From positions 384,001 to 448,000 of the forward strand of contig OZ220090.1 of NCBI GenBank assembly GCA_964291625.2: a stretch of DNA of 64,000 nucleotides. Direction: 5' to 3'. A program made the translations under genes and the position numbers. The first letter of the stretch is position 1; every line of letters begins with the position of its first letter. Source of the DNA: Candidatus Latescibacterota bacterium (GTDB lineage Bacteria; Latescibacterota; UBA2968; UBA8231). The notes under the pieces were generated by a model. The model was not told where the DNA came from. It did no database searches and saw only the letters and a list, made by a program, of their open reading frames with translations. This document shows positions 6,048 through 25,700 of the stretch, one piece after another.

Positions 6048-9000
6048 GTGAAGAAGCTCATCACCTTCGTGGCGGCCGGGGCGCTGCTGGGAGCCACCGG
6101 TGCCGTGGAAGGCCGCGGCCTCCAGGCCTACGGGGCGGCCAAGGCCGCCCAGGACGAGGCCAGACCCGGCCAGCAGGCCCTGATCAACGTCAACAACATG
6201 GCCATGTGGTTCCGGAGCGACGGCATGACCGGGCACAACCCTCTCAATGGCAATTCGGGCGTGACTTTTCCGCGCTCCACCGGCCAGGTCATCTACTGGG
6301 ACGGCCTGATCTGGGGTGGCATCGTCAAGGACGGCGATCCCCAGGAGTTGCGCGTCGGCGGCCAGACCTACGAGATCGGCACCGTTCCCGGCGGCATCGT
6401 CAGCCGGGGCGTGGCCGAGGATCCGGACGACCCCGGGGTGCGCATCTACCGCATCCGCCGGGACTTCCGGACCGCGGACCTGCGCCTCGACGTGTCCGAG
6501 ATGCAGGGGATTGGGCTGGGCGAGGTCACCGATGGTGACGTCGAGGAATTGCGGGCCCAGTACGAGCGCGACTGGCAGGAGTGGCCTTGGCAGAAGGGGG
6601 CGCCGTACTACGACAACGACGGCAGCGGCTCGTACGACCCGGATGTCGACGAACCGGGCGTGGCCGGGGCCGACCAGGTGGCCTGGTTCGTGGTCAACGA
6701 CCTCGCCGAGGGACCGGTCAACTCGCTCTACGGGTCCAAGCCCATCGGCCTGGAAGTGCAGATGCTGTTCTGGGCCTATGCCCGCACCGACGCCCTGGGA
6801 GACGTGATCTTCAAGAAGTTCACCGTCATCTACGAGGGCACGAGCGCCACCCCCGACACGGCCCGCATCGAGGACATGTACTTCGCCCAGTGGTCCGACC
6901 CGGACTTGGGCGACTTTGGCGACGACTTCGCCGGGTCCGACGTCGATCTGAGCCTGGGTTACGTGTACAACTCCTCGGACAACGATCACACCTACGAATT
7001 CTACGGGCTGGCGCCGCCGGCCGTGGGCTACGACTTCCTCCAGGGGCCTGTCGTACCGGTCTTCCTCAAGGACGAGAACGGCGACACCGTCCTCGACGAG
7101 CAGGGACAACCCGTCCTCGACACGAGTTCCCAAGCGATCTTCAACTTTGGCCTGCGTCCCGGCTTCCGCAACCTGCCCATGACCTCCTTCGTCTACTTCG
7201 CCGCCGGCTCGGCGATCAGCGATCCGGATCTTGGAGACTACGTCGGCACCCAGCAGTGGTACAACCTGCTGCGCGGCTTCCAGCCGCAGCCCGACATCGA
7301 CAATCCGGTGCCCTACACGAACCCCCTGACCGGCGAGGCCACCCTCTTCACCCTCGACGGCGATCCGACCACGGCCCAGGGCTGGAACGACGGCGTCCCC
7401 CTGCCCTCGGGAGACCGGCGCATCGTGCTGAATACGGGGCCTTTCGAGATGGCCCTGGGAGACACGCAGGAGGTGGTGGTGGCCCTGCTGGGCGGCATCT
7501 CCACCGACCGCCTGCGCAGCGTCTCCAAGCTCAAGTTCAGCGACCAGTTCGTGCAGGACGCGTACAACAGCTTCTTCCAGGTGCCGTCGCCGCCGGCGGG
7601 CCCCGACGTGCGGGTCACCGAGCTGGAGGCCCGGGTCCTGCTCGACTGGGGCTGGAACGACGAGGCGATCCGCCAGACCGAGGCCGATGACGGCTCGGGG
7701 TTCCTCTTCGAGGGCTACAACCTCTACCAGCTGCCCTCGGCCGAGGCCCCCCTCGACCAGGGGACCCGCCTGGCTACATATGACCTGGAGAACGGGGTCG
7801 CCGCGGTTCTCGGCATCGCCCTCGACGACGAGTCGGGGGTCATCCTGGAGGTGCCCCTTCAGGTCGGGTCCGACTTCGGGGTCCGGCGCCGGGCCTGGGT
7901 GACCCACGATGCCCTGCGCGGAGGCCCCCTGGTCAACGGTCAGGAGTACTACTTCGCGGTCACCGCCTACAACCGGAACACCGCCGAAGGGGCCGCCGTG
8001 ACCACCCTGGAGAGCAGCCCCCGGACGCTCATCTGCGTGCCCCGGAAGCCGCCCCTGGGGACCCGCTACGGCACCGAGGCGGACGACACCCTGCCTGTCG
8101 ACCACGTCGGAGGCAGCGAGGGAACGGTGGTGGTCAAGGTGGTGGACCCGACCCGCACCACCGGGCACTCCTATCAGGTCGAGTTCGGGGAGGAGGAAGG
8201 GGTGGTGGTCTGGGACCTGGTCAACACGACCTCGGGACAGACGGTCCTGGAGAACCAGACCGACCAGGCGGGATCGGCCTTCTATCTCCCCGATGACGGA
8301 TTCGAGGTGATGGTCTCCGGCCCGCCCCTCTCCATCAGGAGCTGGGAGTGGCTGCGCGACGGCGAGCCGAACAACGACGACCGCTGGCTCAGCGGGGTCA
8401 ACTGGGGAGGCAGCTCCTTCTTCGGCGGCGCCGACCTCGGGATGAACTTCTTCGGCAGCTCGATCACCACGGGGGCGGAGTTCGTCGCCGTCGAGATCCG
8501 CTTCAGCAACACGAACACCCAGAAGGCCTACCGCTACCTGAGAGGGGGAGACCCCAACTACGGATTCCAGGACTTCGTCGACGTGCCCTTCACCGTCTGG
8601 GACATCGACAGTGATCCGCCGAGGCAGTTGAACGCCGCCTTCGTGGAGAACAGCGAGTCCCCCGCCGAAGACGGCACTTGGCTCCCCGTCACTTTCGAGG
8701 AAGACCTCGGCGGGCGGGAGTACCTTTTCATCCTGAAGAGCGACTACAGCGACGAGTCACTGGCCCAATACGCGGAGAGCAACATAGCGGCCACCGCGGC
8801 AGACTTCGACGTCCTCTACGCCATGTGGCCGGTCCTGCGGCCCGGGCATGAGAATACGGAGCTGGCCGACGGCCAGGCCCTGCGTTTTACCCCCTACCGC
8901 GTCAACACCTCGGCCGATGTCTTCCGCTTCGAGGTGCCCGGCACCCTGTTCGATTCCGAGCAGCAGAAGGAGGACGTGGCCCTCATCAACGTCTTCCCCA

Positions 9001-16641: not shown

Positions 16642-16716
16642 GTGAGCAACGGCGACCTCAACTGGATCGCGAACTACATCTGGGGCATCGCCGACGACGT
16701 CCTGCGCGACCTCTAA
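16642..16716 (+). pseudogene. hsdM: N-terminal 24 codons of Type I R-M methyltransferase, cut by IS
   Basis: GTG...: MSNGDLNWIANYIWGIADDVLRDL*; the gene continues as YVRGKYRDVILPMTVLRR right after the IS at 18014. Confidence 0.9.
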
Positions 16717-18013
16717 GGAACTGTCCAGAAATAAGTGCTGTTCTTTTTGGTGGCAGGGTGTTACCTTTGATGCGTGGACACGGAGAGCACTCTGCGGGCG
16801 AAATACAAAGCCCTGGCGCCGGTGTTGAACGAGCGCACGGGACGGTTGTGGGCCGCGTCGGAGGCGCAAGCCCTGGGGCATGGCGGCATTGCCGTGGTGG
16901 CTCGGGCCACGGGCCTGTCGCGGACCCGGATCGCTCGCGGCCTGCAGGAACTGCAGTCGGACGCCCCGTTGGATCCCGGCCGGGTGCGTCGGCCGGGCGG
17001 CGGTCGCAAGCGACGCGTCGACACCGACGTGACGCTGTTGTCGGACCTCAACGCCCTGGTCGAACCGGTCACCGCCGGGGCGCCGGACGACAGCCCCTTG
17101 CGATGGACGTCGAAGAGCACCCGCAAGTTGGCGGCCGAGTTGCAGGCCCTGGGCCATTCGGTGAGTCCTGGCCTCGTCAGCGGACTGTTGCGCGAGCTTG
17201 GCTACACGCTGCAGGCCAATCGCAAGACGAGAGAAGGCACCCAACACCCGGATCGGGACGCCCAGTTTCACTATCTCAACGACCAGGTCCAAAGGGCCCA
17301 GGCTCAAGGCCAGCCGGTCATTTCGGTGGACACCAAGAAGAAGGAGCTGATCGGCGACTTCAAGAACGGGGGCCGGGCCTGGCGTCCGAAGGGCGAGCCG
17401 GAGCGCGTGAAGGTGCACGATTTCGTCATCCCCGCCCAGGGCAAGGCGATTCCCTACGGGGTCTACGACCTGAACCGCAACGAAGGCTGGGTCAGCGTCG
17501 GGGTCGACCACGACACGGCCGGTTTCGCGGTGAACGCCATCCGCAGCTGGTGGAAACGCATGGGGCGTCCGGCCTACCCGGCGGCCTCGCACCTGTGGAT
17601 CACGGCCGATGCGGGGGGCAGCAACGGCCCGAGACTGCGGCTGTGGAAATGGGAATTGCAGCGCTTCGCCGATCGCACGGGCCTGACGATCACCGTCTGT
17701 CACTATCCTCCGGGCACGAGCAAGTGGAACCGCATCGAGCATCGCCTGTTCTCCTATATCGCCAAGAACTGGCGAGGCCAGCCGTTGGTCAGTCTGGCCA
17801 CGGTGGTCAACCTGATCGGCCGGACGACCACGAAGAAAGGGCTTCGGGTACGCGCGGAGATCGACAAGCGATCGTATCCCAAAGCGGTGGTCGTCAAGGA
17901 CGAGCAAATGGAGCGCATCGATCTCTCGCCCCATGAGTTTCACGGGGACTGGAACTACACGATCCGGCCCACAGCGGCCAGCCGAAGTGAATCATCTGTT
18001 TCGTGACAAAGCC
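16716..18013 (+). mobile_element. ISAzo13-family insertion sequence (~1.3 kb) inserted in hsdM
   Basis: Imperfect terminal IRs (AGGAACTGTCCAGAAATAAGTG vs reverse complement AGGCTTTGTCACGAAACAGATG); short TA/CTA target duplication; removal restores GAC CTC TAC GTG CGC. Confidence 0.88.
16774..18006 (+). CDS. ISAzo13-family DDE transposase
   Basis: ISVDTKKKELIGDF, PYGVYD, ITADAGGSNG, HYPPGTSKWNRIEHRLFS, FHGDWNY; stop codon lies in the right IR. Confidence 0.93.
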   Translation: MDTESTLRAKYKALAPVLNERTGRLWAASEAQALGHGGIAVVARATGLSRTRIARGLQELQSDAPLDPGRVRRPGGGRKRRVDTDVTLLSDLNALVEPVTAGAPDDSPLRWTSKSTRKLAAELQALGHSVSPGLVSGLLRELGYTLQANRKTREGTQHPDRDAQFHYLNDQVQRAQAQGQPVISVDTKKKELIGDFKNGGRAWRPKGEPERVKVHDFVIPAQGKAIPYGVYDLNRNEGWVSVGVDHDTAGFAVNAIRSWWKRMGRPAYPAASHLWITADAGGSNGPRLRLWKWELQRFADRTGLTITVCHYPPGTSKWNRIEHRLFSYIAKNWRGQPLVSLATVVNLIGRTTTKKGLRVRAEIDKRSYPKAVVVKDEQMERIDLSPHEFHGDWNYTIRPTAASRSESSVS

Positions 18014-20379
18014 TACGTGCGCGGCAAGTACCGCGACGTGATCCTGCCCATGACCGTGCTGCGCCGGCTGGACGCGGTGCTGGAGGAGAGCAAGCAGGAG
18101 GTCCTGGGGATGAAGGCCACCCTCGACCAGGCCGGCGTCGTCGAGCAGGACGCCACCCTGCGGCAGACCGCCGGGCAGGCCTTCTACAACACCTCGAAGT
18201 TCACCCTGAAGGACCTGAGGGCCCGCGCCAACCGCCAGCAGCTCGAGGCCGACTTCCGGGCCTGGCTCGACGGGTTCTCGCCCAACGTGCAGGACATCCT
18301 CGACAACTTCGAGTTCCGCAACCAGATCCAGCGGCTCTCCCGGGCCGACGCCCTGGGCACGCTGATCGAGAAGCTGACCTCGCCCGACATCAACCTGAGC
18401 CCGGTCCCGGTCCACGGTTCCGACGGCACGGTCCGGCACCCCGGCCTGGACAACCACGGCATGGGCACGATCTTCGAGGAGCTGATCCGGCGCTTCAACG
18501 AGGAGAACAACGAGGAGGCGGGCGAGCACTGGACCCCCCGCGACGCCGTGACCCTGATGGCCAAGCTCGTCTTCCTGCCCGTGGCCGACCGGATCAAGTC
18601 CGGCACCTACCTGATCTACGACGGGGCCTGCGGCACCGGGGGCATGCTGACCGTGGCCGAAGACGTGCTCCAGCAGCTCGCCGCCGACCACGGCCGGCAG
18701 GTCTCCACCCATCTCTATGGCCAGGAGATCAATGCCGAGACCTACGCCATCTGCAAGGCCGACCTGCTGCTGAAGGGGGAAGGGGACGCGGCCGACAACA
18801 TCGTGGGCGGCCCCGAGCACTCGACCCTGGCCAACGACGCCTTCCCGTCCCGCGAGTTCGACTTCATGCTCTCCAATCCGCCCTACGGCAAGAGCTGGAA
18901 GACCGACCTGGAACGCATGGGCGGCAAGCGCGACATGCGCGACCCGCGCTTCGTGATCGAGCACGACGGCGATCCCGAGTACTCCCTGGTCACCCGCTCC
19001 AGCGACGGCCAGATGCTCTTCCTCGCCAACAAGCTCTCCAAGATGAAGCCGGGCGGCAGCCGCATCGCCGAGGTCCACAACGGCAGCTCCCTGTTCACCG
19101 GCGACGCCGGCCAGGGCGAGAGCAACATCCGCCGCTGGATCATCGAGAACGACTGGCTGGAGGCGATCGTCGCCCTGCCCCTCAACATGTTCTACAACAC
19201 CGGCATCGCCACCTACGTCTGGGTCCTCAGCAACCGCAAGCCGGAGCACCGCCGCGGCAAGGTGCAGCTGATCGACGCTACCGGGTGGCACCGGCCCCTG
19301 CGCAAGAACCTGGGCAAGAAGAACTGCGAGCTCGGCGAGGAGGACATCCAGCGTATCTGCGACACCTTTCTCGCCTTCGAGGAGAGCGAGCAGAGCAAGA
19401 TCTTCGACAACGCCGCCTTCGGCTACTGGAAGGTGACGGTCGAGCGGCCGCTGCGCCTCGAAGGAGCCGACCCCGACCGCGCCTGCAAGGCCGCCGAGAT
19501 CAAGAAGCTGAAGGAGAGCTGCGAGCGCAGCGAGAGTGCTCCGGCTGTCATCAGGAAGATCCACAAGCGAGGCACGGAAGCCGATCCGCTACGCGGCCGG
19601 TTCGAGGCGACGGTGAACGGCCGACACGCCGTGGTGGAGTACGAGCCGGACACCGCCCTGCGCGACACCGAGCAGATCCCGCTGCAGGAGGAGGGCGGCA
19701 TCGAGGCGTTCCTGCGGCGGGAGGTCCTGCCATATGCCCCCGACGCCTGGTACCAGCCGGACAGCGTGAGAATCGGCTACGAGATCAGCTTCACGCGGTA
19801 TTTCTACAAGCCCCAGCCGATGCGCACGCTGGAGGAGATCGGTGCGGACATCCTGGCGTTGGAGAGGGAGACGGAAGGGCTGCTCGACGATCTGCCCCTG
19901 GTGCGCGAACCGGCGACTGAGTACGGCAAGCCGCGCATCTACGTGGATACCTCGGTGATCGGCGGCTGCCATGACGATGAATTCCGCGAGCCATCGATGC
20001 AGTTGTTCGAGATGTTTCGCCAGGGAGAAGCCACGATGCTTCTCTCGGGCATCACTCTGGATGAACTAGCGGATGCTCCGCCCCCATCAGGCAGGCCACC
20101 AGCACCGTTCCCTCGGAACACAAGGAGCTCCTTGCCGTTTCAAGAGAGGCAGAAGAGCTCGCCGATGCCTACATCGCGGCTGGGGCCATGGGTGGGGCCA
20201 ACCTGAACGATGCGCTGCACATCGCTCTCGCGACCCTGGCCAAGGCCGATGTCCTGGTGAGCTGGAACTTCAGGCACATGGTGAACTGGCGGCGCATCAG
20301 GGCCTGCAACGAGGTCAATCGCAAGAATGGATACCATGCCATCGACATTCGCACCCCGGAGGAAACCGTCCATGACTGA
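18014..20379 (+). CDS. hsdM: Type I R-M N6-adenine methyltransferase (main body) fused to C-terminal PIN domain; 1-nt frameshift in C-run at ~20081-20085
   Basis: GEHWTPR, YDGACGTGGML, SNPPY, IGYEISFTRYFY; no stop before KPRIYVDTSVIGGCHDDEF; other frame continues ...DALHIALATLAKADVLVSWNFRHMVN to TGA 20379. Confidence 0.85.
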
Positions 20380-20587
20380 AGACCGTCCCACCAAGAAGAG
20401 ATTCGACTGCGTCAAGTTCATGCGCGAGGCCCGCGCCCGCAGTGCCGCAAAGACAGCCCACATGACGACTGGCGAACGGATTGAGTGGTTCAATACCCGT
20501 CGGTATGACGACCCCGTGCTGGAAGAAATGGCCGCGCGATTGCGCCAATCCATACAGGACAGGGCGACGGATAGCCGCGCAGACTGA
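20372..20587 (+). CDS. Small protein coupled to the PIN domain, putative antitoxin
   Basis: ATG overlaps the PIN stop, GGAGG RBS; MTEDRPTKKRFDCVKFMREARARS...MTTGERIEWF resembles the small partners found after this PIN subfamily. Confidence 0.65.
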   Translation: MTEDRPTKKRFDCVKFMREARARSAAKTAHMTTGERIEWFNTRRYDDPVLEEMAARLRQSIQDRATDSRAD

Positions 20588-20619: not shown

Positions 20620-20754
20620 ATGCCTTACGCGGAAGACTGGAACGACCCGAAGGCCATGTTGCGAGACGCCGTGCTCTGCCATTTCGACGACACCACGCCG
20701 CGACCCAGGTTGATTCGCCTTCATTCTGTCCGCGATGAGGTCCACTTGGCATGA
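20620..20754 (+). pseudogene. HicB-like antitoxin C-terminal fragment (family often mis-annotated '2-oxoisovalerate dehydrogenase')
   Basis: Manual translation MPYAEDWNDPKAMLRDAVLCHFDDTTPRPRLIRLHSVRDEVHLA*; RDAVxCHF...IRLHxVxDEV motif; TGA overlaps hsdS ATG. Confidence 0.55.
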
Positions 20755-22187
20755 AATCGCCAAACGTCCGGGAATTGAAGCCGTATCCGGAAATGAAGGA
20801 CTCTGGCGTCGAGTGGCTCGGGGAAGTGCCTGCGCATTGGGAGGTCAAACCCAACCGCACCCTCTTTGATGAGGTAAGGGAGCGAGGTCGACCAGAAGAA
20901 CCGATGCTATCAGTAACGATCAAACGGGGTGTCATACGCCAGAGTGACCTCCTGGAGAATGCATCAAAGAAGGATGGTTCAAACCTGGACAAATCGGCCT
21001 ACAAACTGGTCAAACCTGGGGACATCGCATACAACAAGATGAGAGCATGGCAAGGTGCGGTGGGGGCGTCTGAGTATCGAGGCATCGTTAGTCCTGCCTA
21101 CGTTGTTGAGCGTCCACGCAATGGAGTCAGCTCTGGCTTCCTCCATTACTTGCTTCGGATGCCCGGTTTCGCAAAAGAGGCCGAACGCTGGTCATACGGG
21201 ATTACATCGGACATGTGGAGCCTACGGCCTGAACACTTCAAGATGATCTACGCATGCCTTCCTCCTTCCATCGAACAAACCGCCATCGTCCGCTTCCTCG
21301 ACCACGCCGACCGACGCATCCGGCGCTACATCCGCGCCAAGCAGAAGCTGATTGCGCTGCTGGAGGAGCAGAAGCAGGCCATCATCCACCAAGCCGTTAT
21401 AGGCCAGATGGACCTCCGGACTGGACGCCCCTATCCGTCGTACAAGGACTCAGGCGTGGAGTGGTTAGGCGACTTGCCTGATCATTGGGAAGTGAGACGG
21501 ATAGGCAGTCTTGCCAAAGTAGGTAATGGCTCGACACCTGCTCGCAGTAATCAAGCATATTGGAGTGACGGTTCGTATCCCTGGCTGAACAGTTCCAGCG
21601 TGAACCAGGGTAGGATAACGGAGGCTGACCAGTTCGTAACAGAGACAGCGCTTCGAGAGTGCCATTTGCCGAGAGTCCCTGCGGACAGCGTGCTTGTTGG
21701 AATCACCGGGCAGGGAAAGACGCGGGGTATGGCCGCAGTGTTGGCGATTGAAGTGACGATCAACCAGCATTTGGCGTACATAACACCAAGAGCCGGCAGG
21801 GCGTGGTTGACCTCCGGCTATCTTCACATGTGCCTCACTGCGGCGTATACAGAGTTGCGCGCAATCAGCAGCGCTTCCGGCAGCACTAAGGGTGCCCTGA
21901 CATGCGAGGACATCAAGTCCTTCAGCGTTCCACTGCCTCCGATGGAGGAACAAGAAGCGGTGCTCTTGTCGATCAGGAGGAGTCTTACCCCTCTAGAGAA
22001 CTGTGTGGACCTAGCGCAGCGCCAGATTGAACTTCTGAAGGGGTACCGCGCCCGCCTCATCGCGGATGTCGTCACCGGCAAGCTCGATGTGCGCGGGGCG
22101 GCGGCTGGGTTGCCTTCGGAAGACATCCCCGGGGACCTCGATAAGCCAGCGGAAGAGGACGGAGTCGACAGAGAGATAGCCGTATGA
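20751..22187 (+). CDS. hsdS: Type I R-M specificity subunit
   Basis: Duplicated conserved region KDSGVEWLG-x-x-P-x-HWEV, two AT-richer TRDs, PPxxEQ motifs, LIADVVTGKLDVR end. Confidence 0.95.
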   Translation: MKSPNVRELKPYPEMKDSGVEWLGEVPAHWEVKPNRTLFDEVRERGRPEEPMLSVTIKRGVIRQSDLLENASKKDGSNLDKSAYKLVKPGDIAYNKMRAWQGAVGASEYRGIVSPAYVVERPRNGVSSGFLHYLLRMPGFAKEAERWSYGITSDMWSLRPEHFKMIYACLPPSIEQTAIVRFLDHADRRIRRYIRAKQKLIALLEEQKQAIIHQAVIGQMDLRTGRPYPSYKDSGVEWLGDLPDHWEVRRIGSLAKVGNGSTPARSNQAYWSDGSYPWLNSSSVNQGRITEADQFVTETALRECHLPRVPADSVLVGITGQGKTRGMAAVLAIEVTINQHLAYITPRAGRAWLTSGYLHMCLTAAYTELRAISSASGSTKGALTCEDIKSFSVPLPPMEEQEAVLLSIRRSLTPLENCVDLAQRQIELLKGYRARLIADVVTGKLDVRGAAAGLPSEDIPGDLDKPAEEDGVDREIAV

Positions 22188-22241
22188 CGCTCGGCCAGCC
22201 GAGCCATCCCTATTATGTTTCCATCGCAAAGGAGGCAACGC

Positions 22242-22759
22242 ATGACAGACGGGAGCAAGTGGCGTGCGGTGGAGAGCGTGCCCGGCCGACTCAGCGGGGC
22301 CTGGGTTTTCGGGGGCACTCGGCTGCCCGTGTCGGCCCTCTTCGGCAACTGGCGGAGGGCGCGACCGTCCACGACTTCATCGAGTGGTTCGGCGGGGTGG
22401 ACGAAGAACAGATGCGGGATGTAATGAGAGTCACCGTATCCATTGACGAAGAGACCTATCGGCTCGCCCGAGTCCGAGCGGCGGAATTGGACACCTCGGT
22501 GTCAGCCTTGGTACGGGGCTACCTGGAGAGCTTGGTCGAGGACGACGGCTCTGGCGCGACGGCGACCGGTAGCAGAGACGCAGAGAAAGAGGCCAAGCGT
22601 CGGCGTGAGTTGATGAGGCGGGTCTTCCAAGACTTCGACGCCCGTGGCATCGGCCTGAGGATGTCCGATAATAGCCAGGTCCGAGGCTCAGGCGGCGGCC
22701 GCCGCCGAAGTCCAAGACAACCGTGGGTGACCGCCATGGACTCTCTCCAGACTAACTAG
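22242..22759 (+). CDS. DUF433-like domain fused to ribbon-helix-helix antitoxin-like domain; 1-nt frameshift at ~22349
   Basis: PGRLSGAWVFGGTRLPVSALFGN/LAEGATVHDFIEWF (DUF433-like), then MRVTVSIDEETYRLARVRAAELDTSVSALVRGYL (RHH). Confidence 0.65.
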
Positions 22760-22763
22760 CGGA

Positions 22764-25700
22764 ATGCCCACCGACACCACCGAACGCGGCCTCGAGCGCC
22801 TTATCTGCACCACCCTGGCCGGCCATCCCTGTGACGCGCCTCCGGGCCCCACTGTAGGCGAGCCTCCAGCCCCCTACACCGGGTCCGGTTGGAGCGGCGG
22901 GAACTTCCACGACTACGACCGCGAGTACTGCGTCGACCTGGCCCAGCTCTCCGCCTTCCTGCGCGCCACCCAGCCGGAAGCATCCGAGTCCCTGAGCCTG
23001 TCCGAAACCGGCCCGACGCGCCGCCGGTTCCTGGCCCGGCTCCAGGGAGAGATCAGCAAGCGGGGCACCATCGACGTGCTGCGCCACGGCATCCGGCACG
23101 GGGCCCACGATCTCGACCTGTTTTACGGCACGCCCTCGGCCGACAACCCGGAGGCGCAGGAGCGCTTCGGGCAGAACCGCTTTACCGTCACCCGCCAGCT
23201 CCGCTACAGCCGCGACGAGACCCAGCGGGCCCTCGACATCGGGCTGTTCATCAACGGCCTGCCGGTCCTCACCTTCGAGCTGAAGAACAGCCTCACCAAG
23301 CAGACGGTCGACGACGCCGTCCAGCAGTACCAGCGCGACCGCAACCCGCGGGAGAGGCTGTTCGAACTGGGCCGCTGCGTTGCCCACTTCGCCGTGGACG
23401 AGAGCGAGGTCCGGTTCTGCACCCACCTCCGGGGCAAGGCCTCGTGGTTCCTGCCCTTCAACCGGGGCTGGAACGACGGCGCCGGCAACCCGCCCAACGC
23501 CAGCGGCATCAAGGCCGACTACCTGTGGCGCGAGGTGCTGACCCCGGAGAGTCTGACCGACATCCTCGAGAACTACGCCCAGGTGGTGGAGGCGAGGGAC
23601 GAGAAGACGGGCCGGCGGAGCCGGAGCCAGGTCTGGCCGCGCTACCACCAGCTCGACGTGGTGCGCCGCCTGCTCTCGGACGCGGGCGACCGCGGCGCCG
23701 GAGAGCGCTACCTGATCCAGCACTCGGCCGGCAGCGGCAAGAGCAACTCCATCGCCTGGCTGGCCCACCAGTTGATCGGGCTGACGCGGGACGGCGTTCC
23801 CGCCTTCGATTCGATCATCGTCGTCACCGACCGGGTGATCCTGGACCGGCAGATCCGCGACACGATCCGCCAGTACGCCCAAGTCTCGGCGACCGTGGGT
23901 CACGCCGACCGCTCCGGCGACCTGCGCCGGTTCATCGAGAGCGGCAAGAAGATCATCATCTCCACGGTGCAGAAGTTCCCCTTCATCCTCGACGAGATCG
24001 GCAACGAGCAGCGGGGGCGCCGCTTCGCCATCATCATCGACGAGGCCCACTCGAGCCAGGGAGGCCGCGCCAGCTCGGCCATGGCCCGGGCCCTCTCCGA
24101 GGCCGGGGAAGAGGAGGAGGACGAGACTTTCGAGGACCGCATCAACCGCCTCATGGAGTCGCGCAAGCTGCTGCCCAACGCCAGCTACTTCGCCTTTACC
24201 GCCACGCCGAAGAACAAGACCCTGGAGAGATCTTCGGCGCCCCCGACCCGCGGCCCGACGGGGCGGTCCGGCACCACGCCTTCCACAGCTACACCATGAA
24301 GCAGGCGATCCAGGAGGGCTTCATCCTCGACGTGCTCGCCCACTACATGCCGGTGGCCAGCTACTACAGGCTCGCCAAGACCGTGGAGGAGGACCCGGAG
24401 TTCGACGTGAGGAAGGCCCAGAAGAAGCTGCGCCGCTTCGTCGAGGGCAGCGGCCACGCCATCCGGCTCAAGGCCGAGATCATGGTCGACCACTTCCACG
24501 ACCAGGTCCTGGCCCAGGGCAAGGTCGGCGGCCAGGCCCGGGCCATGGTGGTCACCAACGGCGTCGAGCGGGCGATCCAGTACTACCACGCCATCCGCGA
24601 CTACCTCCTGGAGCGCAAGAGCCCCCACCGGGCGATCGTCGCCTTCTCGGGGGAGCACGACTTCGGCGGGGGCCGGGTGACCGAGGCCTCCCTGAACGAA
24701 TTCCCCTCCGGCCGGATCGCCGAGCAGTTCCAGGGGGAGCCATACCGCTTCCTGGTCTGCGCCGACAAGTTCCAGACCGGGTACGACGAGCCCCCCTGCT
24801 GCACACGATGTACGTCGACAAGACGCTCTCCGGTATCAAGGCGGTGCAGACCCTGTCCCGGCTCAACCGGGCCCACCCGAAGAAGCACGACGTCTTTGTC
24901 CTCGACTTCCTCAACGACGAGGAGATCATCAAGCACGCCTTCTCCGACTACTACCGGGCCACGATCCTGGCCGACGAGACCGACCCCGACAAGCTCCACG
25001 ACCTGCAGGCGGACCTGGACGGCGCCCAGGTATACGACCCCGCGCAGGTCGACGACCTGGTCGAGCGCTACCTCGGCGGCGCCGAGCGCGACCAGCTCGA
25101 CCCGATCCTCGACGCCTGCGTGGCGGTCTACCGGAGTCTGGACGAGGACCGGCAGGTCGACTTCAAGGGCCAGGCCAAGGGCTTCGTGCGGACCTACGCC
25201 TTCCTCTCCTCCGTGCTGCCCTACAGCGACGAGGGCTGGGAGAAGCGCTCGATCTTCCTGAACTTCCTGATCCCGAAGCTGCCGGCGCCCGAGGAGGAGG
25301 ACCTGTCGAAGGGGATCCTCGACGCCATCGACCTCGACAGCTACCGGGTGGAGAAGCAGGAGATGAGGAAGATCCTGCTGCCCGACGAGGACGCCGAGGT
25401 CGACCCGGTGCCGGCCGCCGGGGGAGGGCACCGCCCCGAGCAGGAGCTGGACCGGCTGTCGAACATCCTCAGGACCTTCAACGACCACTGGGGCACCGAC
25501 TGGGAGGACGGCGACCGTGTGGGACAGCTGATCACCGAGGTGATACCCTCCAAGGTGGCCGCCGACACCGCCTTCCGGAACGCCCGCCAGAACTCGGACC
25601 GCGAGAACACCCGCATCGAGGGCGACAAGGTGCTGATCCGGGTCATGAACTCGGTGATGAAGGACGACACCCAGTTGTTCAAGAAGTTCATGGACGACCC

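Follow-up and report, generated by a model that had tools for sequence, protein, structure and literature searches.

The 64,000-nucleotide (nt) stretch of Candidatus Latescibacterota bacterium DNA analysed here ("the window": positions 384,001 to 448,000 of contig OZ220090.1, which is contig 2 of the genome we label G000, with about 70% G+C) carries a type I restriction-modification (R-M) operon whose methylase gene, hsdM, reads in frame into a PIN domain, with a small partner gene, orf71, directly behind it. The genes hsdM, hsdS and hsdR all lie in one locus of the window, hsdR being frameshifted. The order is hsdM::PIN, orf71, a small open reading frame (ORF), hsdS, further small ORFs and hsdR, and what the window holds is a decayed copy of a conserved type I R-M operon. 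In what follows, labels of the form G, L, P or X plus a number are the identifiers used in comparison for genomes, loci, proteins and public sequencing runs, respectively. The part of the locus from hsdM to orf71 reads as follows.

16643..16715, + strand: hsdM 5' fragment, with a GTG start, codons 1-24 (MSNGDLNWIANYIWGIADDVLRDL) and the TA of codon 25
16716..18013, + strand: ISAzo13-family insertion sequence, with a transposase ORF at 16774-18006 and a TA duplication at 16714-16715 and 18014-18015
18014..19900, + strand: hsdM body, with HsdM_N and N6_Mtase domains and NPPY and DGACGTGG motifs, through ...LLDDLPL, stop codon absent
19901..19927, + strand: linker of about ten residues, VREPATEYG, its R-E-P conserved in at least 90% of fused proteins
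19928..20085, + strand: PIN N-half in the hsdM frame, KPRIYVDTSV...LDELADAPP, holding the first Asp and the invariant Glu
20081..20085, + strand: frameshift site, a 1-nt deletion relative to related loci (CCCTCC to CCCCC)
20086..20379, + strand: PIN C-half in the -1 frame, IRQATSTVP...NDALHIALATLAKADVLVSWNFRHMVN..., ending at TGA 20377-20379
20372..20587, + strand: orf71, the intact gene of the 71-amino-acid (aa) partner, motif K-x-FDCV-x2-MR-x2-R, predicted three-helix protein and putative antitoxin

The in-frame fusion of HsdM and PIN

The ORF at 17933-20206 of the window matches HsdM_N (PF12161, E 7e-19) and N6_Mtase (PF02384, E 4.6e-52), and DGACGTGG and SNPPYG are both present in the HsdM translation. 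The hsdM body is 95% identical to the intact fused protein P0126, which the PADLOC model MTase_I matches at E 2e-235. The C-terminal helix of HsdM (...ILALERETEGLLDDLPL) leads through ...ETEGLLDDLPL to no stop codon and continues in the same frame into VREPATEYG-KPRIYVDTSVIGGCHDDEF...LDELADAPP. This is the arrangement described in an earlier note on this DNA, made from the letters alone, in which hsdM lacked its stop and ran through VREPATEYG into a PIN domain; every element can be seen directly in the sequence where that note placed it. A TGA at 19918-19920 lies out of the hsdM frame, and the identical letters (GACTGAGTAC) stand in the intact fused loci L004 and L084. The same note had allowed that an indel might put this TGA into the hsdM frame, leaving two separate genes. 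No such indel appears when the window is aligned as DNA with these loci, its two closest intact relatives: there are zero indels over 19860-20080.

The earlier note had also proposed looking for other proteins that combine N6_Mtase with PIN, and these turn out to be numerous. A search of a 5.8-billion-protein collection with the PIN N-half only (ORF residues 660-717), limited to a protein length of 416-1325 aa, returned 58 clusters. N6_Mtase is present in every one of these, and 51 are at least 788 aa long (typically 812-817); where the source names such proteins, it calls them "N-6 DNA methylase" only. Of 41 related genomes, three have full-length matches in one frame: 814 aa long at 96% identity in G007, from the same genus, 825 aa long in G019 and 827 aa long in G040. 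A single open frame of 814-948 aa crosses HsdM and PIN in 15 loci of the fetched GTDB species genomes and L084. Intact fused homologs therefore exist, both in the 58 clusters and, at 96% identity, in G007, so the note's further doubt, that there might be none, falls away. With the same junction recurring in 58 clusters of long proteins, HsdM and PIN form a genuine in-frame fusion, beyond chance. All 16 fused loci have hsdS downstream, and in 10 of them a related hsdR falls inside the 7-kb flank.

The hsdM and hsdR bodies of the window (18000-19900 and 23000-25600) are matched at 90% identity or more by very many contigs of all four public runs that we compared as contigs, with summed word depths from hundreds to tens of thousands; few match the PIN-orf71-hsdS region. 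The inserted module is far less widely shared than the methylase and restriction cores. Among PLSDB plasmids, the best matches span residues 1-651 (the methylase part) only, and the fused form is absent among the matches listed.

The PIN domain, its orf71 partner and the origin of the fusion

Pfam and NCBIfam searches with both PIN halves of the window, orf71 and the small ORF behind it gave nothing above threshold, PADLOC had no match to PIN, orf71 or the small ORFs, and NCBIfam had none to intact PIN and orf71 relatives. Against the PIN family PF01850 (cut-off 23.6 bits), the N-half gives no match and the C-half 15.3 bits; among intact relatives P0045 (29.4 bits) and P0171 (23.8 bits) both pass, and P0126 (19.0 bits) falls just short. 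The C-half has 1103 homologs, the closest 82-83% identical. An AlphaFold model of full-length P0126 has a mean pLDDT (predicted local distance difference test) of 56, with residues 661-810 at 85-94, and Foldseek matches the PIN part of P0126 to chains of the VapC/FitB group (3h87, 5ecw, 5x3t, 2bsq and others) at probability 1.0 and TM(target) 0.6-0.7. As modelled, then, the C-terminal domain is a VapC-like PIN fold. In an alignment of 80 PINs, Glu46 never varies, and at least 90% of the sequences keep Asp7, Asp95, Asp108 and the S-W-N-F-x-H motif; in 49 aligned fused proteins D669 and E708 are invariant, and D757, D770 and the linker residues R655-E656-P657 are at or above 90%. The acidic residues singled out in the earlier note (DTS, DEL, DALH, SWNFRH) are these conserved ones. 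The catalytic residues persist even where the PIN N-half is only about 54-60% identical, and the two halves in the window, though in different frames, still encode all four acidic residues and the S-W-N-F-x-H motif.

The ATG of orf71 lies at 20372 and the gene overlaps the PIN stop (TGA 20377-20379) by 8 nt, which bears out the overlapping 71-aa ORF reported before. An exhaustive phmmer search with orf71 gave 59 representative clusters, mostly of 60-80 aa, in which the motif K-x-FDCV-x2-MR-x2-RDR...DP-x-L is common; P0188 (354 aa), an apparent "orf71 repeat", proved to be a homeodomain protein and a spurious match. No model exists for the family in Pfam, NCBIfam or PADLOC, and by sequence it has no relative in the PDB, the best hit of its profile against PDB sequences being at E 0.18. 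It is modelled as a three-helix protein (core pLDDT above 90), for which Foldseek returned nothing at E 0.001 or below, a wide VIA-align search nothing above Z 4.4, a value usual for common helical arrangements, and the ESM Atlas unnamed clusters only. Profile and fold searches found no match to ribbon-helix-helix (RHH), AbrB or helix-turn-helix (HTH) domains.

The pairing of the two genes is far more general than the fusion. A scan with the PIN alignment over one genome per GTDB species confirmed 581 stretches, of which 80 loci were kept, spread over many bacterial phyla and three archaeal lineages. In at least 74 of the 80 PIN copies (five have none detected) the orf71-family profile finds a homolog downstream, at -7 to +31 nt, and one is present behind every HsdM-attached copy. 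PIN and orf71 make up a widespread module of two genes, free-standing by origin, in which the toxin gene leads. In two loci (L014, 8150-8815; L024, 7740-8411) a second PIN copy and orf71 form one ORF, PIN::orf71; in both copies the Asp of D-A-x-H is replaced (by V or A) and SWNF has become SWDY, so the PINs there may be inactive.

The earlier note had further suggested modelling the PIN with the 71-aa protein, which it took for a putative antitoxin. When the PIN of L084 was predicted together with its own orf71 product in three runs with alignments that we built ourselves (A4 and A5), the interface score ipSAE was 0.74 (median of the three runs) against 0.02 for the best control; a score of 0.74 is reached by 58 of 80 solved complexes and by two of 110 mismatched pairs. 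Contacts agree among the three runs to at least 96%, and the partner pLDDT is at least 75. On the PIN side the modelled interface comprises residues 7-13, 39-52, 90-95 and 113-114, which is the catalytic face, and on the orf71 side residues 10-25, including the conserved F11, D12, R18 and R21. The model supports the view that orf71 is an inhibitor bound over the PIN active site, and the putative antitoxin of the note emerges as the PIN's conserved partner, both by its place downstream in at least 74 of 80 copies and by its predicted position on the catalytic face.

As for the origin of the fusion, 18 of 84 PIN copies share an open frame with an upstream hsdM, and the other 66 are free-standing proteins of about 155 aa that start MKPRIY.... 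In a quick maximum-likelihood tree of the PINs, rooted at the midpoint, one clade (SH-aLRT 98), nested among the free PINs, unites all 18 HsdM-attached PINs with two tandem second copies found in these loci. Given the quick tree and the midpoint root, this is compatible with a single capture of PIN-orf71 by hsdM and later spread with the operon, without proving it. The suggestion that hsdM had captured an addiction module fits the tree, since the fused clade is nested in free PIN-partner modules. The clade spans Latescibacterota, Acidobacteriota, Gemmatimonadota and one Gammaproteobacterium, from which it follows that the operon has moved horizontally. In G030 (locus L088) a closely related hsdM, 85-86% identical, is unfused; it ends ...LLAEILGSGEQRETTT*, and behind it come a 70-aa gene and a HicA toxin gene (PF07927, 32.1 bits). 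With a HicA module in the hsdM-hsdS slot of this locus, the junction seems to be a recurrent landing site for toxin modules.

Several other arrangements were seen around the fused genes. Two to four tandem orf71 paralogues stand behind hsdM::PIN in L025 and L033 (at about 7420-8430), L014 and L043, and in L005 the duplicated unit consists of a C-terminal fragment of hsdM plus PIN and orf71. In L081 (1049-2998) a PIN of the same family ends a 649-aa frame whose N-terminal 500 aa are unlike the HsdM of the window. We considered this as a second kind of fusion and do not regard it as established; the N-terminal part has no Pfam family, and may be another partner or just an open upstream frame.

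Decay of the operon copy in the window

The copy of the operon in the window has been damaged in several places, including some of the genes that lie beyond orf71.

20620..20754, + strand: 44-aa ORF resembling the C-terminus of the 70-aa protein before the HicA gene in the unfused locus L088; possible remnant
20751..22187, + strand: hsdS, 478 aa, open; PF01420; full-length tblastn matches in related loci
22215..22759, + strand: small genes in the hsdS-hsdR gap, a DUF433-like piece and an RHH-like ORF; sub-threshold PF04255, PF01402 and PF19891
22764..25767, + strand: hsdR in three frames; Pfam HSDR_N, ResIII and SWI2_SNF2

The toxin-bearing gene has been struck twice. An ISAzo13-family element of 1298 bp (PF07592, E 1.7e-140; NF033519, 577 bits) splits hsdM at codon 25, and excising it restores ...DL-Y-VRGKY; the short 5' fragment in front of it is 92% identical to residues 1-25 of intact P0126 (G000:C2:400642-400716). 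Contigs of the four public runs join 16712 to 18013/18014, skipping 1300-1301 nt, and represent the uninterrupted hsdM of other organisms. Partial copies of the element, at 91-95% identity, occur elsewhere in the genome (contig 1 of G000, 1527989-1531691, and other places), which indicates that it has been active in the lineage.

The second lesion is the frameshift within PIN, beyond which the remainder of the domain (IRQATSTVP...DALHIALA...SWNFRH..., or IRQATSTVPSEH...NDALHIALATLAKADVLVSWNFRHMVN...) is read in the -1 frame, starting at 20086 and closing with the TGA at 20377-20379. Where close relatives have GCTCCGCCCTCCGTCAGG, the window has GCTCCGCCC-CCATCAGG, with one base absent. By that comparison a 1-nt deletion made the run of five Cs, and a miscounted homopolymer is discarded. 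The earlier note, which restored the frame by adding a C to the run at 20081-20085, was thus right that the PIN is broken there by one nucleotide and mistaken as to the cause, which is a deletion from CCCTCC and not a miscounted run. Programmed frameshifting at the five Cs was considered and rejected, the close relatives having CCCTCC and being read straight through with no shift. A contig of X24 that spans the site (412 nt, 19987-20398) has 0 differences and 0 gaps against the window, a match that is not independent evidence, since X24, which contains a fraction of 0.54 of the words sampled, could be the source sample; X1 and X2 contigs of relatives spanning the site show one gap each. In the same genome rpoB (1308 aa) and rpoC (1389 aa) are each one open frame, so the assembly is not generally frameshifted. 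With the X24 contig and these two genes as the basis, we take the PIN frameshift as real, not as general assembly noise, and judge sequencing error an unlikely source of the frameshifts.

Compared by tblastn with the intact HsdR of L017 and L043, hsdR runs through three successive frames. The changes fall at 24227-24242 (GAGAGATC; a GAGAGA stretch near 24230) and at 24790-24797 (a run of six Cs near 24793), and X24 and X3 contigs are two letters shorter at the run at 24793; both changes look like 2-letter insertions. The DUF433-like piece in the hsdS-hsdR gap (sub-threshold, 17.4 bits) shifts frame near 22348, and contigs of relatives have one extra base at 22348/22349; together with the sub-threshold RHH/CopG-like ORF it looks like another broken small module of the operon. 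The 44-aa ORF in front of hsdS, for which there is no Pfam match, is 77-80% conserved in L004 and L017; in L088 (3495-3946) the 70-aa protein whose C-terminus it resembles comes directly after hsdM and before the HicA gene. Only orf71 and hsdS remain open in the window operon. With an insertion sequence in hsdM and frameshifts in both PIN and hsdR, this copy cannot work; the window locus is a decayed, pseudogenised defence island.

Possible function of the fusion and relation to known systems

The reading that we favour, and think probable, is that a module of toxin-antitoxin (TA) type has been captured on a type I methylase, where it acts as a tethered backup or addiction toxin. The PIN would be an RNase toxin and orf71 its antitoxin-like partner, and the tether to HsdM would couple release of the toxin to what becomes of the R-M complex or the locus, giving the fusion a guardian or addiction function. 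The first of these, which the earlier note pictured after PrrC as a toxin freed when phage inhibits the enzyme, is a conjecture. In such a scheme the three-helix orf71 protein, with its conserved arginines, would sit on the acidic catalytic face of PIN and keep it silent, and every HsdM of the methylase core would, through the fusion, carry one latent RNase. Should orf71 be lost or displaced, PIN would cut RNA and the cell would arrest. Candidate triggers are phage shut-off of host expression, anti-restriction attack on the methylase complex, and loss of the locus itself; the outcome would be a second, abortive line of defence, a stabilised R-M locus, or both.

A bolder form of this idea, which we put forward tentatively and hold to be less likely than not, is that operons with HsdM-PIN constitute a self-guarding class of type I R-M systems, in which disturbance of the core or loss of orf71 would turn the complex into an abortive-infection RNase. 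Two latent PINs would be brought together by the paired HsdM C-termini of the M2S core, and orf71, a previously unclassified inhibitor, would plug their active sites with its conserved arginines. The disturbance might come from DNA-mimic anti-restriction proteins, failed assembly or proteolysis, and orf71 would be lost where infection stops its synthesis. Sensor (the R-M core) and effector (the toxin) would then be a single polypeptide.

A number of points weigh against the capture of a tethered toxin as we have described it. Toxicity, RNase activity, neutralisation by orf71 and the link to phage or anti-restriction proteins are all things that we infer. The score of the PIN-orf71 complex is the model's own confidence, and its calibration is only rough because the alignments were author-built. 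The HsdM part of the full-length model is poor and unusable, also for how PIN docks on HsdM. The orf71 protein, in the profile and fold searches given above, has no family or clear fold match and lacks the DNA-binding domain of classical VapB antitoxins. All the fused copies seen come from metagenome-assembled genomes, and the PIN part is broken in several close relatives too (short calls P0006, P0008, P0009 and P0060; an aberrant C-terminus in P0179), which would mean that the domain is often lost. A conserved fusion could, finally, persist by hitch-hiking with a successful mobile R-M operon. As a separate observation, these five proteins have short PIN C-terminal pieces (63-127 aa) or aberrant ends, and PIN breaks seem recurrent across assemblies.

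Of the explanations that dispense with any coupling between toxin and R-M complex, the strongest is pure addiction, in which PIN-orf71 would only stabilise the R-M locus by post-segregational killing, a stable HsdM-PIN outliving a labile orf71, with no sensing of phage. The TA-like layout, the patchy distribution across phyla and the retention of orf71 in every fused locus are what one would expect of it, and the window, with the toxin parts broken and orf71 open, displays the usual decay order of an addiction module. We nevertheless consider it unlikely, as it leaves the conserved covalent fusion and the VREP linker unexplained where mere adjacency would do. It is also conceivable that a lost stop codon simply joined two neighbours, with PIN working or idling apart from HsdM and the fused form spreading through the mobility of the operon alone. 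The hsdM-hsdS slot does accept insertions, as the HicA gene and 70-aa gene in the unfused L088 attest, and unfused PIN toxin-antitoxin genes inside type I operons are known from the available part of PMC5499597; yet the fused proteins form a single well-supported clade over at least four phyla, conserve both their catalytic residues (down to about 54-60% N-half identity) and their linker residues, and have regained a stop in none of the 15 full-length loci, so that an uncoupled fusion appears still less likely than pure addiction.

Less probable again, and by our estimate quite improbable, is that PIN serves restriction itself as an accessory nuclease, acting on RNA, R-loops or flapped DNA at the bound enzyme, with orf71 as a regulator and not an antitoxin. 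The domain is indeed tethered to a DNA-bound core, and PIN-like domains include DNA flap nucleases, as the available text of PMC5499597 has it; its closest structures, however, are VapC/FitB toxins rather than FEN-like nucleases, the module mostly occurs away from any R-M genes (66 of 84 PIN copies have no hsdM attached), and the fused operons still carry hsdR. Scarcely credible, and largely refuted, is an artefact in which hsdM and PIN are separate genes and either the continuity or the frameshift is an assembly error. Frameshifts do occur in related long-read metagenome assemblies (hsdM of L006, for example, is in three frames), but the same in-frame junction appears in 58 protein clusters from several sources, there are zero indels relative to L004 or L084, the X24 contig is identical across the frameshift, and rpoB and rpoC are unbroken.

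Among characterised systems one of the nearest parallels to a captured, tethered toxin is PrrC, a latent RNase inside the EcoprrI type I locus, which the R-M proteins are thought to keep silent and which would step in as a backup once restriction is blocked (PMC12707154; 10.1101/2024.01.29.577857, as far as the available parts of these sources go). The PIN would likewise be a latent RNase encoded within a type I hsdMSR operon. PrrC, however, is a separate protein with ABC-ATPase-type and anticodon-nuclease domains and no dedicated small inhibitor, whereas here PIN is fused to HsdM and has its own partner gene. In P0126 we find HsdM_N, N6_Mtase and PIN only, with no PrrC-type domains, and PADLOC reports methyltransferase models only. 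PrrC in EcoprrI may be regarded as a functional analogue, one that has no domains in common with the fusion.

With VapBC and FitAB the module shares the PIN fold, the acidic pocket, a small adjacent gene whose product is modelled over the active site, and overlapping start and stop codons. It differs in that the toxin gene comes first, the partner lying downstream in at least 74 of 80 copies; in that the partner is a predicted three-helix protein with no RHH, AbrB or HTH domain and no Pfam, NCBIfam or PDB relative; and in that the toxin of the fused clade is the C-terminal domain of an 812-aa methylase. PIN-like TA genes transcriptionally coupled to type I R-M subunits were described by Matelska et al. 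(2017), who state that direct interaction was never demonstrated (PMC5499597, in its available part). PIN nucleases accompany hsdM, hsdS and hsdR in both cases; theirs, in the same part of that paper, are described as neighbouring genes and not as a fusion to HsdM. In a preprint, Payne et al. (2024) put forward the idea that a toxin or nuclease gene lodged within a defence operon is transferred together with it and provides backup defence, and the Hma-embedded candidates in the available portion of their text include PIN proteins paired with ABC ATPases (10.1101/2024.01.29.577857); PADLOC has no model for the present PIN or orf71. Full-text literature searches, whose scope stopped short of the possibly relevant Supplementary Figure S7 of PMC5499597, returned no description of an HsdM-PIN fusion.

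For the present genome the result is an ordinary one, a pseudogenised defence island, and its interest lies in the family to which the broken gene belongs. Toxin genes nested in type I R-M operons are a classic case of layered immunity, with PrrC as the model. Because toxin and R-M enzyme are usually separate proteins, their physical coupling has been hard to study. New here, as far as the literature searches go, is that a toxin embedded in a type I R-M operon has become covalently attached to it and comes with a partner family that lacks a classification. A further outcome is the definition of a toxin-first PIN module, widespread in occurrence, whose partner family is absent from Pfam, NCBIfam and PADLOC. 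Since the coupling here is covalent and the fused form is conserved over several phyla, it offers a defined construct, an 812-aa protein plus its 71-aa partner, with which one may ask whether the R-M core controls the toxin, what releases it, and whether the arrangement serves defence or selfish maintenance.

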